Origin: an uncultured Thermoleophilia bacterium
Lineage (GTDB): Bacteria; Actinomycetota; Thermoleophilia; UBA2241
Assembly (NCBI GenBank): GCA_963702475.1
Contig: CAVPCT010000003.1
Span: 384,001 to 448,000, forward strand
Direction: 5' to 3'
Length of the DNA: 64,000 nucleotides
Part shown: positions 1-59,418 of the stretch, one piece after another
How the letters are laid out: each line of letters begins with the position of its first letter
Numbering within the stretch: the first letter of the stretch is position 1
Made by a program: the position numbers and the translations under genes
The notes under the pieces: model-generated
What the model was told of the DNA's origin: nothing
Databases searched by the model: none
The model's input: only the letters and a program-made list of their open reading frames with translations

Positions 1-420
1 TTGGCAGGGACCAACCTCATCTACGGGTCGGGCATGATCGAGTCGGGCGTCACCTTCGACTTCGCGCAGCTGGTCATCGACGACGAGATCGCGCGCATGG
101 TCAAGCAGGTGGTCGGCGGCGTGCGCGTGGACGACGAGACGCTGGCGGTGGACGACATCGCCTCGGTCGGCTCGTTCGGCGACTTCCTCAGCCTGGACGC
201 GACCATGGCGCACATGCGCGAGCAGTCGCAGCCCCGGCTCATGGACAGGCGCGTGCGCGAGGAGTGGGAAGAGGCGGGGAGCCCCGGCATGTACGAGCGC
301 GCCCACGCCAGGGCACGCGACATCCTCGAGAACCACAGGCCGGAGCCGCTGCCCGACGACGTGCGGCAGCGGGTCCGCGACATCGTCGACCGTGAGGACA
401 GGGCGGCCGGCAGGGCCTGA
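1..420 (+). CDS. mttB: Trimethylamine methyltransferase (MttB superfamily), C-terminal part; gene begins before the window
   Basis: AGTNLIYGSGMIESGVTFDFAQLVIDDE...DR..REEWEEAGS...ILENH.PEPL matches the MttB C-terminus; the Pyl/non-Pyl position lies upstream of the window. Confidence 0.85.
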   Translation: MAGTNLIYGSGMIESGVTFDFAQLVIDDEIARMVKQVVGGVRVDDETLAVDDIASVGSFGDFLSLDATMAHMREQSQPRLMDRRVREEWEEAGSPGMYERAHARARDILENHRPEPLPDDVRQRVRDIVDREDRAAGRA

Positions 421-5430: not shown

Positions 5431-6123
5431 TCAGTTCCCCGAGAGCACCCAGTCCTTGGCGGCTGCCAGGTGCACCTTGAGGGTGTACCCTGCGCCGCCG
5501 TCGGTGACGGAGTACGCGAAGTCGCCGTTGCCCGTCCCCTGCGCCATGGGCGCGTGCGTCCAGGGGTTCTGCGGCCACACGGGCACGCCGGGCTGCAGGC
5601 CGACCGCGCCGGCGGCGCCCAGGTCGGCCCCGGCCGGCGGCGTGCCGCCGTGGCCGGCCCTCCACGCCTCGACATAGCTCTGCAGCAGCGCCAGGCCGGC
5701 CTTGCTCGCGTCGTCGCGGTCGGTCTTGAGCCACGCCGGGACGCCCCCGGTGAGCTTGTAGTCGCCGCTCGACAGGTGGCCGATGAGCGTGTAGCCGGTG
5801 CCGTCGGCTTTCAATCTGTAGGTGTAGGTGCCCCTGCTGGTGCCCGGAGCCATGGTCTTGCCGGTCCACGGGTTGCCCGGCCACACCGGCGCCACCAGGG
5901 CGCCGCCCTTCTTGACGTCGGCGACAGCGGGGTAGGTGAAGCCGTCCTTCTCCGCCTGGGTGTTGACGTAGCCCTGCAACAGCAGGACGTTCATCTGCAC
6001 CTGCTTGTCGACGAAGCTCGGGGCGGCGGCGGCCTGCTGCGGCAGCGCCGCGGCCGTGAAGAAGGAGAGCGCCGCGGCCGCGAGCACCGCGGCGCCGCGC
6101 CTCAGCGGGACATGTTTCGGCAT
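5431..6123 (-). CDS. Secreted protein with two tandem pseudopilin(GspG)-like 'WP.NPWT..PM..G...G.Y.Y' domains
   Basis: Sec-type signal ending AAAA; LLLQGYVN/ALLQSYVE and WPGNPWTGKTM/WPQNPWTHAPM duplicated; SD GAGGAGG. Confidence 0.75.
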   Translation of the reverse strand: MPKHVPLRRGAAVLAAAALSFFTAAALPQQAAAAPSFVDKQVQMNVLLLQGYVNTQAEKDGFTYPAVADVKKGGALVAPVWPGNPWTGKTMAPGTSRGTYTYRLKADGTGYTLIGHLSSGDYKLTGGVPAWLKTDRDDASKAGLALLQSYVEAWRAGHGGTPPAGADLGAAGAVGLQPGVPVWPQNPWTHAPMAQGTGNGDFAYSVTDGGAGYTLKVHLAAAKDWVLSGN

Positions 6124-6246
6124 GGGTGCCTCCTCGAAACGCCTCGGAGTGTCGTCTCAGTGTCTCCGCCCCGCCTCTCCGCGGTCAACCGCGGCGGCGA
6201 CCTGTGCCATGGTGTGCGGTCCGGTGCCGGGCTACTGCATTTGGTC

Positions 6247-6252
6247 TAGGAT
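6247..6252 (+). promoter_or_regulatory. -10 element TAGGAT; probable leaderless mtbB transcript
   Basis: TANNNT hexamer 7 nt before ATG 6260; no clear SD. Confidence 0.45.
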
Positions 6253-6259
6253 GCGGGGC

Positions 6260-7648
6260 ATGGAACCCCGCTTCCCCACCCGCATGGGCGACGGCTTCAT
6301 GGTCGAGAGGACGCGCAGCGAGCTGCGCGCCGACATCGAGGACGCGACGCGTGAGGCGGCGCGCAAGGCCAAGGCGCCGCCACTTGCCTCCGACGAGCAA
6401 GAACACCTGCTCGACATCTACGCCTCTCGCGCGGCCTTCACGGCCGTCGACATCGGCGACCAGGTCGTGCTGAGCTGCGATGGCGGCGGCAGCAAGATGA
6501 CCGGCACCGACCTGCTCGACCTCCTGGAGAGCGAACAGCGTCTGGGCCAGGACATCCTCGAGCTGTGGCACATCGAGTACAGCTACAAGGCCATCAAGAC
6601 GATCCTGCCGTTCCAGCAGCAGGTGATGCAGAACGTCCAGCTGATGCTCACCGCTCCGGTGCAGTACGGCGCCCAGCCCAACCTCGCCTTCTACAGCCGG
6701 CCGGACGGGCCGTGCGAGAACTGGTTCGAGCTGCTGCCGCGTGGCGACGTGGCGGGCGCCCGCGCGGCCGTCGAGGAGGCCATGGAGTACGCCACGCAGG
6801 ACTTCGTGTACGTGGCGGACGGCATGATCGAGGCCGGCGCCGACGGCGTGGACTTCGACACCACCGGAGGCGCCGGCGACGCCGACCTCTTCAGCACCCT
6901 CCGCGCCGTGAAGCACGTCCGCGAGCGGTACCCGGAGGCCGGCGTGGAGCTCGGCATGGCCGGAGAGTTCGTGATCGGCGTGCACGGCGAGCTCGCCTGG
7001 GACGGCCGGCGGCTCGCCGGCCTCTGGCCCAAGGGCCAGCTCGAGGTCGCGCAGGACGCCGGCGCCACCATCTTCGGACCGGCCGTCAACATCCGCACCG
7101 GCCGGTCCTGCTGCTGGAACACGGCGTACTCGCTCACCGTCATCAAGCCGTGTATGGAGGTAGCGCGCATCCCCGTCCACGTGAACGTGGGCGAAGGGGT
7201 CTGCGGCGTGCCCGTGAACGGCTACCCGCCCGAGGACGCGTCGTCACGGGCGGCCAAGGCGCACGTGGAGATCCTCGGCTGCGACGGCTTGTAGGTCGGC
7301 TCGGGTGACTCCAGGGGCATGGACGTCACCCACGCGCTCGCCGCGGGCATGGGCGGCATGCGCACGGCCGGAGACCTGGTCGCGCGCCTGCAGATGTCCC
7401 GGGGCATGCGCCTCACGGAGGCGAAACGGTACGTCGCGGAACGGCTGGCTTGCTCGGTCGGTGATCTGAGCGACAGCTACGCGATGGAGCAGCTGCGCGG
7501 CGAGCTGGGTCTGGGGCGGATCCTCGACCACTCGAACCTGCACCCCGGCAAGCCGAACGCGCTGGCGGCGAAGTTCCGTATCGCTGAACTGCTCGGCCTG
7601 CGGATCAACTCGGTGGAGCGCTTTCGGGAGCTGGCGGGGCTGGCGTGA
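6260..7648 (+). CDS. mtbB: Dimethylamine:corrinoid methyltransferase MtbB with in-frame amber (pyrrolysine) codon at 7292-7294; 462 aa with readthrough
   Basis: N-terminal TRMGDG, YSYKAIK, YGAQPNL.FYS.PDGP..N, DTTGGAGDAD, GMAGEF, IPVHVNVG.GV.GVP; ORFs 6005-7294 and 7319-7648 are in the same frame, giving GCDGL-(TAG)-VGSGDSRGM...GMGGMRTAGDLVARLQ, the MtbB Pyl context. Confidence 0.92.
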
Positions 7649-36751: not shown

Positions 36752-36987
36752 GCTGTGAGCATCCCGCGCCGGCCGGCGGGCAAACCAGAGCCTGGGCATG
36801 GCAGCCTGGCGTGCGGCAGGAACCCTCGGGCATGCCGCCGCCGGAGGCTGGACACGGGCGGTGATCCGGCGCAACGGCATTGCCGCGCCCTGCCGGGAGT
36901 ACTGTGTGTTCGTGGAGTGCGCTAGGCCGCCATGTGCACGAGGACTCCCTCGACGAGTCGCATGCGGCCGGACCAGGAGGCTGCACC

Positions 36988-38322
36988 ATGGGGCGACGAC
37001 TTCTGCTGATCAATCCGTCGGCTGCGCACTTCGGACGGGAGAGGTGGAGCCTCGCCGCGTTCGCGACCATGGAGCCGCTCGCCCTGGCGTACGTGGCCGC
37101 GTTGACGCCGCCGGATTGGGAGGTGCGGATCGTCGACGAGACGGTCGAGGGCATGCCCTCGTACTGGAGCTTCGAGCCCGATCTCGTGGGCCTCACGAGC
37201 CAGACGCCCGCCGCGCCGCGTGCGTACGATGTCGCGGCCCACTTCCGCGCTCGTGGTGTGCCGGTGGCCATGGGGGGGATGCACGCGACGTTCTGCGCGG
37301 ACGAGGCGGCACGGTTCGTCGACGTGGTGTGCCAGGGGGAGGCCGAGGGACTGTGGCCGCAGCTCATCGACGATTTCGAGTCCGGAAGGCTTGCCGAGCG
37401 CTACGTGGGCGGCGCGACCGACCTCGCCGATCTGCCCCTGCCGCGCCGCGATCTGTACCGGTATCCGTACCGCGTGGCCCTTGTGACCAGCGCGCGCGGC
37501 TGCAACGAGCGCTGCGAGTTCTGCGCCGTCTGGAAGTTCGAGTCGGGGAGGTTCCGCGTGCGTCCCGTCGAGCAGGTGTTGGCCGAGCTGCCACGCGTGC
37601 CGTCCACGCCGTTCATGATGTTCACCGACGACAACGTGATGGCCGACCGCGATCATGCGCTGGAGGTGTGTCGCGGCATGCAGGAACGAGGGCTGAAGCG
37701 GCGGTTCGCGGTGCAGGCCTCGCTCGACATCGCGGATGACGACGAGTTGCTCGACGCGCTCCGGGCCAGCGGCTGCTTCCTCGTGGAGGTCGGCTTCGAA
37801 TCGCTGAGCGAGGCGACCCTCAAGAGGATGCGGAAGGGCGTCAACCTGCGGGTCGGCGTGGAGCGTTACGGGGAGTTGATCGGTCGGCTGCACGAGCACG
37901 GACTGCTGGTCGTTGGGACGTTCATCTTCGGCAATGACGGTGAAGGGATGGACGTCTTTCGCCGTACCACCGACTTCGTGCTTGACGCCGGCGTCGATCT
38001 GGCGCACTTCGGGCTCCTCACACCTACGCCGGGCACACCGGTCTTCGAGCGGCTCGCGCGCCAGGGGCGTCTGTTGTGGACGCGCTTCCCTGGCGACTAC
38101 GTGCTCTTCCACACCTGGCACTCCACGTTCGTCCCCGACGCCATGTCACCGCATCAGGCCGAGGAGGGGATGGCGACGGTCGCGCGCGACCTCACGCGGT
38201 GGCCGGTCGCGCTGCGACGGGCGGCGCGCACGGGTCTCGACACGCGGAGTCTCACCGCGGCGGCCACGTCACTGCTGTGGACGCGAACAGGGCTGCACCG
38301 GCGAGTGTTCGGTGTGAGGTGA
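36988..38322 (+). CDS. B12-binding radical SAM protein
   Basis: EPLALAYVAA, GG.H.T, GEAE, RGCNERCEFC, DDN. Confidence 0.9.
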   Translation: MGRRLLLINPSAAHFGRERWSLAAFATMEPLALAYVAALTPPDWEVRIVDETVEGMPSYWSFEPDLVGLTSQTPAAPRAYDVAAHFRARGVPVAMGGMHATFCADEAARFVDVVCQGEAEGLWPQLIDDFESGRLAERYVGGATDLADLPLPRRDLYRYPYRVALVTSARGCNERCEFCAVWKFESGRFRVRPVEQVLAELPRVPSTPFMMFTDDNVMADRDHALEVCRGMQERGLKRRFAVQASLDIADDDELLDALRASGCFLVEVGFESLSEATLKRMRKGVNLRVGVERYGELIGRLHEHGLLVVGTFIFGNDGEGMDVFRRTTDFVLDAGVDLAHFGLLTPTPGTPVFERLARQGRLLWTRFPGDYVLFHTWHSTFVPDAMSPHQAEEGMATVARDLTRWPVALRRAARTGLDTRSLTAAATSLLWTRTGLHRRVFGVR

Positions 38323-57143: not shown

Positions 57144-57290
57144 GCCGTGCGCGACCGGCAGACGGCGCGACGGGGGCTTTCGCCCAGCTCCCGTCGCGCC
57201 TGCCGGCATCCGGCGGCCACGTGCCGCCGCGCGGGCGACGCAAGGCATGAGCCGACGACGGCTCACGGGCAGCACTGGAGGAAGTCAGCA

Positions 57291-58331
57291 ATGAAGAGAA
57301 CGAGCGTGTGGGCGGCCCTCGTGACCGTGGTGCTGGTCGCAGCCGTCGCCCTCGTGGGGACGGCGGTGACGGGCGGCGCGCCGCAGGCGTCCGCCGCCGA
57401 CCCGGTGGTGCTCACGATCACCGGCAACAGTCAGACCAAGACGTACACCATGACGGAGTTGCGGGCGCTGCCCGCCTACACCGGCTACGCCGGGTACGTG
57501 AACAGCTCCGGCACCGTCAGCCCGCCGTGGCCCATCAAGGGTGTGAAGGTCACGGACCTGCTGGCCGAGATCGGCGGCATCCCCGACGGGCAGTCGGTCG
57601 ACGTCACCGCCATCGACGACTACGGCATGACGTTCACCTGGGACGAGGCCGTCAACGGCTCCGTCACCGTGTACGACGCCACCACCAAGAAGGAGGAGCC
57701 TGCGGCCGCGCCGCTCTCCATGGTGCTGGCGTACGAGGAGAACGGCGCGCCCATCGCGGCTTACCCGACGGGAGACGGGCCCCTGCGCCTCGTGTTCGCC
57801 CAGACGCAGGACGTCGGCCAGATCGTCGACGGGCATCTGTTCGTCAAGTGGGTCGACCGCGTCGGCCTGCGCAACGCCGTCGTGCCCTGGGAGGTCAAGA
57901 TGTACGGCCTCAAGGACAAGAAGGGCAAGCGGCAGACGTACACGCTGGACCGCATGAGCTACGACTCGTGCGCCACGCCGGGGTGTCACGGCGCCTCCTG
58001 GGTCGAGCCGGCCACGCAGAAGACCTGGAGCGGCGTGCCGCTGTTCCTGTGCATCGGCAAGGTCGACGGCGGCAAGGGTCACGGCGGCTACGGCGCCTAC
58101 AACGAGGCCCTCGCCCTCAAGGGCTACCGCATCAAGATCACATCCGCCGCCGGCAAGAGTGCGATCATCGGCTCGCGGACCATCCGCAACGTCGAGACGA
58201 TCATCTTGGCCAACAAGCTGATGGGATCCGAGCTCGGACCGGACTACTACCCGCTGCGGCTGATGGGTCCCAAGATCGGCAGCAAGAACTGGGTCGGGCA
58301 GATCACCAAGATCACGCTGCTCCCGAAGTGA
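57291..58331 (+). CDS. Secreted two-domain molybdopterin-oxidoreductase-like protein with CX4CH
   Basis: SD GGAGG; signal peptide; KGVKV.DLL, DDYG, LAYEENG..GPLRL, VKWV; SCATPGCH. Confidence 0.8.
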   Translation: MKRTSVWAALVTVVLVAAVALVGTAVTGGAPQASAADPVVLTITGNSQTKTYTMTELRALPAYTGYAGYVNSSGTVSPPWPIKGVKVTDLLAEIGGIPDGQSVDVTAIDDYGMTFTWDEAVNGSVTVYDATTKKEEPAAAPLSMVLAYEENGAPIAAYPTGDGPLRLVFAQTQDVGQIVDGHLFVKWVDRVGLRNAVVPWEVKMYGLKDKKGKRQTYTLDRMSYDSCATPGCHGASWVEPATQKTWSGVPLFLCIGKVDGGKGHGGYGAYNEALALKGYRIKITSAAGKSAIIGSRTIRNVETIILANKLMGSELGPDYYPLRLMGPKIGSKNWVGQITKITLLPK

Positions 58332-58398
58332 GAGCGCTCCGTGGACACCTGACGGCCGCGTGCGCCGCGGCACCCGGTGCTGCCCAGCGGACGGCATC

Positions 58399-59418
58399 AT
58401 GAGGACCCGGGTCCTCGCGGCCGTCGCCTTCGTGCTGGCGCTCTCCGTGCCGGCCGGCCTGGCCGCCTGCGGCGGCCAGGCCGGCCCCTCCGCCTCGCCT
58501 TCGCCCTCCGTGAGCCCCTCCGGGCCCGTCGTGCTCACGGTGGTCGGCGAGGACGGCCAGAAGCAGTTCACGATGAACCAGCTCCAGGCGCTGCCGGCCT
58601 ACACCGGGTACGCCGGCCTCAAGAGCAGCACCGGCGTCATCACGCTCCCCGTGGAGTACACCGGCGTCTCGCTCACCTCGCTCACCGACCTCGTGGGCGG
58701 CATGAGCAAGACCAACGGCGTCACGCTCGTGGCGAAGGACGGCTACGGTATGACGATCTCGTACGCGCAGCTCGTCGATCACGCCTTCACGACCTATGAC
58801 CCTGCCACGGGCGACGAGGTGCCGCCGGCGGACGACCTCACGGTCATCGTCGCCTACGCACGAGAGGGCGAGCCGCTGGGCGAGGACGAAGGGCCGCTGC
58901 GGCTGATGGTCGCCTCCCCCGATCCCGGAGGGCAGATCGTCGACGGACACTGGACGGTGAAGTGGGTCGACCGGGTCTCGGTCACCAAGGCCTCCGCGGA
59001 GTGGAAGGTGCAGATCCAGGGCGCGCGCCCCGACACCCTGGACAAGCCCAGGTACGTCAACTGCGCCTCGCCCGGCTGCCACGGTTCGGGCTGGGTGGAC
59101 GACAGCGGAAGGCGCTGGGAGGGCATCCCGCTCTACCTGGTCGCCGGTCTCGTGGACGACGAGAAGAAGCACGGCGAGGGCGCCTACAACGCGGCCCTGG
59201 CGAAGCAGGGCTACGACATCCTCATCGAGGACGCCGACGGCGAGGTGACGACCATCGACTCCCGCGACATCGCCGGCAGGGACGACGTGGTGCTGTCGTC
59301 CAAGGTGGACGGCGGCGAGCTCTCCGACGAGGACTTCCCGCTGCGGCTGGTCGGCCCGGGTCTGGACGAAGCGCAGATGCCCGGGCGCGTCGCCCGCATC
59401 GTCGTGCGCCCGCGGTAG
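58399..59418 (+). CDS. Lipoprotein paralog, two SUOX-like domains with CX4CH
   Basis: Lipobox LAAC; YTGV.L, DGYG, AY.REG.PL..GPLRL, VKWV; NCASPGCH. Confidence 0.8.
   Translation: MRTRVLAAVAFVLALSVPAGLAACGGQAGPSASPSPSVSPSGPVVLTVVGEDGQKQFTMNQLQALPAYTGYAGLKSSTGVITLPVEYTGVSLTSLTDLVGGMSKTNGVTLVAKDGYGMTISYAQLVDHAFTTYDPATGDEVPPADDLTVIVAYAREGEPLGEDEGPLRLMVASPDPGGQIVDGHWTVKWVDRVSVTKASAEWKVQIQGARPDTLDKPRYVNCASPGCHGSGWVDDSGRRWEGIPLYLVAGLVDDEKKHGEGAYNAALAKQGYDILIEDADGEVTTIDSRDIAGRDDVVLSSKVDGGELSDEDFPLRLVGPGLDEAQMPGRVARIVVRPR

Follow-up and report, generated by a model that had tools for sequence, protein, structure and literature searches.

Can an amber codon in the middle of a gene of a high-G+C bacterium encode pyrrolysine (Pyl), and is what follows it still translated? 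The question is raised by an mtbB-family gene near the start of the window, by which we mean the whole stretch of 64,000 nucleotides analysed here, C3:384001-448000, C3 being the 1.14 Mb contig CAVPCT010000003.1 of an uncultured Thermoleophilia bacterium. An earlier note, made from the letters of the window, had joined two open reading frames (ORFs) across a TAG into one gene for a Pyl-containing dimethylamine methyltransferase. Our answer is that the gene very probably encodes a Pyl-dependent methylamine:corrinoid methyltransferase of the MtbB (dimethylamine) family, with UAG-345 read as pyrrolysine; judging from comparisons of genes, genomes and RNA models, we put the probability of this reading at about 0.92. 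The features on which it turns are the following.

6260..7648, + strand: mtbB-family gene (PF09505, TIGR02368) of 462 codons, with one in-frame TAG probably read as pyrrolysine
7292..7294, + strand: UAG codon 345, the putative pyrrolysine codon, in a common column with paralogs and orthologues and at positions 1-3 of PYLIS_2
7292..7391, + strand: match to Rfam RF02509, PYLIS_2 ("pyrrolysine insertion sequence mtbB"), model positions 1-100 of 100, 56 bits (gathering 36), E=3e-12

The mtbB gene and its amber codon

The ORFs 6005-7294 and 7319-7648, both on the plus strand, lie in one frame with the TAG at 7292-7294 and eight sense codons between them, as the earlier note had described. Translation of 6260-7648 with TAG as O gives 462 residues with O at position 345, in the context GCDGL-O-VGSGD. 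The terminator is a TGA (7646-7648), and an ATG at 6251 is a second possible in-frame start. The joined product matches PF09505 (Dimeth_Pyl) with 509 bits and E=1.3e-152, residues 5-457 covering positions 3-462 of the 463 in the profile, and it scores 389.9 bits on the NCBIfam equivalog TIGR02368 (dimethylamine:corrinoid methyltransferase), the cut-off being 369.1. Solved structures related to MtbB by sequence were looked for in the PDB, with 0 matches at E up to 1. The expectation that standard annotation would split the gene is borne out by the public gene calls: 119 of the 120 best database hits cover 74% of the query or less, and most of them stop at the TAG after about 344 residues. The only full-length hit, P0103 (47% identical), has a Q at the pyrrolysine position, presumably the product of a gene call under another code.

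The TAG falls on the site where the family carries pyrrolysine, as had been claimed. It is position 1 of the PYLIS_2 model, the consensus of which starts at the UAG of known mtbB genes, and it shares one column with the TAG of all paralogs. PF09505 has 16 matches in the source genome; seven are near full length, each with exactly one TAG, and these seven TAGs align in a single column within the motif DG[LF]-O-[VA]GxGD. A scan of species-representative genomes gave 58 related loci at 80-89% identity, 10 of them partial and excluded. The remaining 48 near-full-length orthologous loci and the window gene make 49 sequences, and every one of the 49 has TAG at the aligned position, while the codons flanking it drift synonymously in the same set. 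A TAG common to all 49, with synonymous drift beside it, and to all seven paralogs far exceeds what chance would give. The equivalence to the Pyl site of Methanosarcina MtbB, where pyrrolysine is residue 356 of 467, was judged from the Rfam model and the shared column.

At the level of substitutions, the codons beyond the TAG are under purifying selection and conserved as protein. Over 528 pairs from 33 in-frame sequences of equal length, the ratio of nonsynonymous to synonymous substitution rates (dN/dS) has a median of 0.19 ahead of the TAG (codons 1-344) and of 0.15 past it (codons 346-461). Single-base insertions or deletions break the frame in 10 of the 48 near-full-length orthologous loci, and the TAG column is intact in all of them. 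These records are metagenome-assembled genomes (MAGs), and the broken frames may be assembly errors.

Pyrrolysine machinery and the use of UAG

The source genome comprises 4.31 Mb in 9 contigs at about 70% G+C, with an estimated completeness of 93.8% and a contamination of 6.5%, and its assignment to the Thermoleophilia agrees with the actinobacterial origin first guessed from the letters. The earlier note had allowed that the genome might hold no pyl genes at all. This objection fails, as pylB, pylC, pylD, pylSc, pylSn and a tRNA-Pyl(CUA) were all found, every protein above its curated equivalog cut-off, and the whole set lies on the window's own contig about 250 kb from mtbB. The window itself was said to contain neither a pyl gene nor a corrinoid protein gene, and this holds for tRNA-Pyl too: every match in the genome falls outside C3:384001-448000. 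The genes pylB (435.6 bits, cut-off 348.2), pylC (323.8, cut-off 248.3) and pylD (209.6, cut-off 150.05) are consecutive on C3 from about 637.9 to 641.0 kb. At C3:641046-641118, 53 bases past pylD, ARAGORN places a tRNA with anticodon CUA; in its fold a single base joins the acceptor stem to the D stem, the D loop has 5 bases and the variable region 2, and the anticodon stem is long, all of which we take to be hallmarks of tRNA-Pyl. An ORF on the opposite strand separates it from pylSn, about 1.1 kb on (C3:642228-642485, 126.2 bits, cut-off 51.15), which is followed at about 643-644 kb by a gene for an MtbC-like corrinoid protein with an N-terminal extension of about 190 residues. The gene pylSc lies about 15 kb off on the opposite strand (C3:657647-658501, 314.3 bits, cut-off 178.15) and adjoins another TAG-bearing mtbB. 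The compact pyl cassette of bacteria is tighter than this layout. A tRNA-Sec with anticodon TCA was also observed on the contig, at C3:167171-167268, and its presence means that the organism probably decodes UGA as selenocysteine.

The genome contains other genes with an amber codon at a Pyl site, one of which reaches into the window.

1..420, + strand: C-terminal 139 codons of a Pyl-type mttB (profile positions 362-497 of 500)

That an MttB-family gene ends at 420 had been seen before, and the suggestion to look for an amber codon in it proved fruitful: it has one TAG, at C3:383932-383934, 66-68 bases before the window begins. Joined across this TAG, the protein reaches 691.3 bits on the trimethylamine methyltransferase equivalog TIGR02369, where the cut-off is 525, and the amber position corresponds in alignment to residue 334 in the solved structure of M. 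barkeri MttB (chain 7XCM_A). The same TAG opens a PYLIS_3 match of 60.8 bits (gathering 38), of which window bases 1-31 are the end. Genome-wide, PF06253 (MTTB) has 75 matches in 4.3 Mb; 15 contain a TAG, and 13 of these are near full length with exactly one. All 13 TAGs align with one another, at a position filled by ordinary residues in 26 non-Pyl paralogs. In the MtmB family, one of five matches has a TAG. The MttB superfamily is thus strongly expanded, most of its members being without TAG and presumably quaternary-amine demethylases, and MttB and corrinoid genes form islands with mtbB copies and broken fragments (e.g. C4:13-62 kb and C5:331-373 kb).

UAG is at the same time an ordinary stop codon in this genome. 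TAG closes 381 (14.5%) of the 2626 coding-like ORFs that have 200 codons or more, TGA closes 82.6% and TAA 2.9%; the next in-frame stop follows at a median of 62 codons after TAG and 59 after TGA. In secY, rplI and the gene of a chorismate-binding enzyme the TAG stands where the domains end. Release factor 1 (RF1) is present as well (477.2 bits, cut-off 423.25). Together these two facts imply that a truncated MtbB also arises or that pyl expression is regulated, and decoding of the UAG would be settled either by Pyl-tRNA competing with RF1 or by regulation of the pyl genes. The terminator of the mtbB orthologues themselves is TAG in 26 of 38 in-frame sequences and TGA, as in the window, in the other 12; read-through of such a terminal TAG would append 9-190 codons.

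Pyrrolysine beyond the methyltransferases was also considered. The genome has 74 pairs of coding-like ORFs joined by a TAG, and we looked more closely at the 34 that do not encode methyltransferases and extend for 100 codons or more to both sides of it. By their Pfam domains 25 of these are two adjacent genes, and seven are without a Pfam match and resemble antisense frames. An SDR/epimerase-family gene (C5:869152-870282, minus strand) has its TAG within the Pfam domain; its sole relative in 30 genomes of the same genus, 60% identical, is without the TAG; a nonsense mutation is a more probable explanation than a Pyl site. In a repeat-rich surface protein (C5:889589-892951, minus strand) the TAG takes the place of the Trp codon found in the repeat's two later copies; it is either a TGG-to-TAG change or an assembly slip in the repeat. 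No conserved Pyl candidate was found among the 34 vetted pairs, and this, together with the normal use of TAG as a stop, suggests that pyrrolysine is restricted to the methylamine methyltransferases.

The partner proteins that the earlier note had proposed to look for, among them MtbC, RamA and enzymes of the Wood-Ljungdahl pathway, are found elsewhere in the genome. There are 33 corrinoid-domain matches, 4 of them above the pyl_corrinoid cut-off, and RACo/RamA-type activators (RACo_C_ter) at 3 loci. One gene for acetyl-CoA synthase (ACS; CdhC) is present, as are three genes for pterin-binding methyltransferases, one of which adjoins ACS and RACo genes on C5. From the known chemistry of the family, the ribosome would insert Pyl at UAG-345 in competition with RF1, and the Pyl residue would bind and activate dimethylamine or a close methylamine. 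One methyl group would then pass to a corrinoid protein in its Co(I) state, the gene of which lies at another place in the genome, and a pterin-binding methyltransferase would move it to tetrahydrofolate and so into the Wood-Ljungdahl route, with RamA-type activators restoring corrinoid that has become oxidised. The host would be an anaerobic Thermoleophilia bacterium living on methylamines. The proposal that the organism decodes UAG as Pyl and demethylates methylamines is in this way supported by the full pyl set, the Pyl genes and the partner genes, and appears likely from the gene content.

Other explanations of the TAG have to be weighed against its reading as a pyrrolysine codon. It could be a nonsense mutation or an assembly error in a gene that is a dead relic, or one acquired horizontally that cannot be expressed. 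This would fit with standard gene calling, which terminates mtbB at the TAG, and with the broken frames in 10 of the 48 loci, but those are limited to a minority of MAG records and leave the TAG untouched. The conservation of the TAG in all 49 aligned sequences already refutes the nonsense or relic reading, the dN/dS of 0.15 past the TAG speaks against a relic, and the entire pyl system on the gene's own contig speaks against an inexpressible gene; we regard the explanation as very improbable. About equally improbable is that every TAG has been reassigned to pyrrolysine and none is a stop, as is reportedly the case in some archaea (reported in 2025). The large Pyl gene set (at least 7 mtbB, 13 mttB and 1 mtmB) would fit, as would the in-frame stop being no nearer after TAG than after TGA. 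Against it stand the 381 of 2626 long ORFs that stop at TAG, secY and rplI and the chorismate-binding enzyme gene among them, the RF1 above its cut-off, and the 34 vetted pairs, which are mostly separate genes and include no conserved read-through. Least probable of all is that the contig was misbinned and the gene belongs to another Pyl-using bacterium. The contamination estimate of the bin (6.49%) leaves some room for this, and the record titles of the 58 related loci include, beside 45 Thermoleophilia, 6 Actinomycetes and 6 Actinomycetota, 1 of Deltaproteobacteria. The other 57 all agree with the host, all contigs have about 70% G+C, and mtbB and the pyl genes share the 1.14 Mb contig with core genes: the window contains dnaB, rplI, rpsR, ssb, purine biosynthesis genes and aroA. 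The MAG record titled "Deltaproteobacteria bacterium" holds an orthologue 84% identical to the window mtbB, and its contig is probably mislabelled or misbinned.

With UAG-345 retained as a probable pyrrolysine codon, there are observations that weigh against the reading or against the substrate named in it. Insertion of Pyl and the activity of the enzyme are predicted from sequence, and TAG is not avoided as a stop in a genome that has RF1. Support for transcription is weak and consists of short contigs from RNA-labelled metagenome libraries. These contigs cover parts of mtbB, and one of 118 bases with 6 differences spans the TAG; the runs are metagenomes that may contain DNA, with word shares of 0.05-0.07, and we rejected them as proof of expression. 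The window copy is also the weakest of the seven full-length ones on PF09505 (505 bits in the scan of the whole genome), and it exceeds the TIGR02368 cut-off by a margin of only about 20 bits. No corrinoid protein, methyl-corrinoid methyltransferase or activator lies beside it or anywhere in the window. Finally, its orthologue group departs at 12 sites from a residue common to all six other paralogs, e.g. R290Y and M312E/Q; Q68, E106, A143 and E or Q312 occur in all 32 sequences of the group, Y290 in 29 and G446 in 30. It is because of these substitutions that we can only infer dimethylamine as the substrate.

It is conceivable that this is an MtbB-fold Pyl enzyme of a paralog group that has shifted to another secondary or methylated amine, which would account for both the solitary position and the conserved substitutions of its own. 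The gene is one of at least 7 full-length mtbB paralogs and stands alone behind a 136-base intergenic region. In 42 loci with full flanks its neighbours are a secreted protein of no known family (38 of 42) and a DAO-type FAD oxidoreductase (34 of 42), and no methylamine-pathway function was found among the neighbours of the window copy by Pfam or NCBIfam. The conserved neighbourhood, with its putative FAD amine oxidoreductase, the lowest family score of the seven copies, the absence of adjacent partner genes and the 12 residues kept across orthologues all favour a shift. Conserved gene order is expected among close relatives anyway, the Pyl codon and its surrounding motif are retained, and the protein still clears the dimethylamine methyltransferase equivalog cut-off. 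As there is no solved structure of MtbB, the changed positions cannot be placed in an active site. We consider a changed substrate unlikely, although much less so than the three explanations above. Elsewhere in the window, a gene for a B12-binding radical SAM protein (36865-38322, plus strand) and two adjoining genes with molybdopterin-oxidoreductase domains (57144-59418, plus strand), which lie beside a solute ABC transporter, were noticed; no link of either to mtbB was seen.

The RNA element beyond the amber codon

The PYLIS_2 match raises a further question, whether the messenger RNA past the UAG is conserved as RNA or only as the code for a protein motif. The part with support from covariation is its 3' hairpin.

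7358..7389, + strand: core hairpin of PYLIS_2, columns 76-107 of alignment A1, 66-97 bases past the UAG, supported by covariation

All 11 PYLIS_2 matches in the genome reach the gathering score. When RNAalifold was slid over the orthologue alignment, the eight most stable windows of the gene were those surrounding the TAG, the best having -40.8 kcal/mol as compared to a mean of -8.7 (standard deviation 7.6). A first test of covariation used an alignment of 39 sequences and 117 columns. The covariation score of the predicted structure was 0.098, as against a mean of 0.040 after shuffling, where 0 of 500 shuffles reached it, and 0.018 or less with slid partners. For a wider test we added the region from 40 more mtbB genes in related genomes and from 11 sites in the source genome, counting both copies and fragments; five of the 40 fetched loci and one fragment from the source genome did not fit the anchor motif and were dropped, giving 83 sequences, 77 of them distinct. 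Ranked by double changes among 5151 column pairs, the helix pairs 84-99, 78-105, 81-102 and 87-96 came 1st, 3rd, 10th and 11th. All four join third codon positions, and those of 84-99 and 87-96 are in four-fold degenerate codons. On a tree of 74 sequences built without the hairpin region, the two sides of pair 84-99 have changed at least 15 and 13 times by Fitch counts, with only 17 changes of the pair state, and 95% of the 74 sequences are paired there. The loop includes a GGA codon, which makes up 5.5% of glycine codons genome-wide and yet is kept in 9 of 9 paralogs and in 39 of 39 sequences of the orthologue set. Compensatory changes at synonymous third positions imply that the core hairpin (7358-7389) is, as far as aligned sequences tell, under selection as RNA.

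The rest of the element presents a different picture. The two 5' hairpins beside the UAG are kept only inside the orthologue group and are 56-87% paired across paralogs. Against synonymous randomisation the hairpin region has only a mildly negative z-score (mean about -1.2, 9 copies), and the synonymous-site entropy past the TAG is not the lowest of the gene. The strong RNAalifold signal is in part sequence conservation and protein motif, and it is the covariation test alone that survives. A universal recoding structure was considered and rejected: the 99 bases past the TAG of the 13 Pyl-type mttB genes gave a mean z of +0.30 against synonymous randomisations, and the same stretch in the 26 non-Pyl mttB paralogs a mean of -0.06, so there is no excess folding after the mttB TAGs. 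The unkept 5' hairpins, the modest z-scores and the lack of excess folding in mttB all weigh against a general role in recoding.

The core hairpin could act in cis, biasing the decision at the UAG in favour of pyrrolysine or linking it to regulation, a suggestion that we make tentatively and think rather doubtful. The setting lends it plausibility: the same codon serves as an ordinary stop in a genome that has RF1, and in 26 of 38 in-frame orthologues a single messenger RNA contains UAG both for Pyl and as terminator. If the suggestion is true, the hundreds of diverged mtbB copies of this Thermoleophilia family would be the best natural data set so far on the function of PYLIS. The likeness to the Rfam family is a full-length match from the UAG onwards, including the conserved GGAGAY loop region, and we see no categorical difference. 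The canonical structure downstream of mtbB is described in the pertinent part of Have et al. 2013 (PMC3639795). What is new for PYLIS_2 is the compensatory change at synonymous sites across 74-77 Thermoleophilia copies; the function of the element is putative in every organism.

Spread in the lineage and relation to known systems

The Pyl trait follows the lineage. A TAG-bearing PF09505 gene was found in all 24 genomes sampled from the same genus and in one of the 16 that represent other families of the class. For PylSc the figures are 51 of 55 in the sample of the same family, 9 of 55 in a second family and 0 of 190 in ten further families of the class, and a sample of 400 other genomes across the phylum added only one more, a member of that second family. 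Three of 36 sampled genomes of the same genus (G041, G042 and G004) are without PylSc, which suggests loss of the trait or gaps in the assemblies; two of them are 1.7-1.8 Mb in size and nearly closed, and G004 retains TAG-bearing mtbB genes.

The full machinery on one contig documents the use of UAG for Pyl, to the extent that genomes can, in a widespread uncultured family of Thermoleophilia from soil, peat, sediment and digesters. This family devotes dozens of genes to the demethylation of methylated amines, and it would rival methylotrophic methanogens for the precursors of methane. Gene callers split all such genes, which means that the capacity is under-counted in metagenome surveys. For the study of the genetic code, the lineage offers a PylSn/PylSc/tRNA-Pyl set from a high-GC bacterium and many mtbB variants with a covarying hairpin in the messenger RNA.

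The earlier note had held that an expanded code is rarely described in such a lineage. It is indeed rare in print, but the novelty was overstated, since cases from Actinobacteria have been published. The 81 bacterial genomes with PylRS that Guo et al. 2022 (PMC9630628) list include "two Actinobacteria", and in all 81 the synthetase is split into PylSn and PylSc. According to the main passages of Ellenbogen et al. 2023 (mSystems; PMC10805028), some Actinobacteriota MAGs from the thawing permafrost of Stordalen Mire express Pyl-encoding mttB and mtbB. The likeness to the system described here is in the phylum, in the shared mttB and mtbB genes and in the signature of truncation at the amber codon. 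The Thermoleophilia are not named in the main passages of either paper, the supplements of Ellenbogen et al. may list these lineages, and the term "pylS" is absent from the main text of the latter, supplements aside. One of our related loci bears the isolate label "palsa".

The gene resembles MtbB1-3 of M. barkeri in belonging to the family along its whole length, in having a single UAG at the equivalent position and a PYLIS_2 downstream, and in being one of several paralogs in its genome. The differences are that the host here is a bacterium with about 70% G+C, that the window copy is without an adjacent mtbC, and that tetrahydrofolate and the Wood-Ljungdahl route, in place of coenzyme M, presumably receive the methyl group. 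Among 14 control genomes, only that of Methanosarcina acetivorans matches both PF09505 and RF02509.

Closer to our case are the bacterial Pyl systems with a split PylSn and PylSc, such as those of Desulfitobacterium hafniense, Acetohalobium arabaticum and Bilophila. They have in common with it the two separate proteins, TAG as a still common stop and pyrrolysine confined to methylamine methyltransferases, whereas the present system differs in its Actinomycetota host, the looser layout of its pyl genes and a much larger set of Pyl genes. Pyrrolysine in Actinobacteria is already known; our additions are modest, namely the spread of the trait throughout a family and the support from covariation for the hairpin of mtbB.

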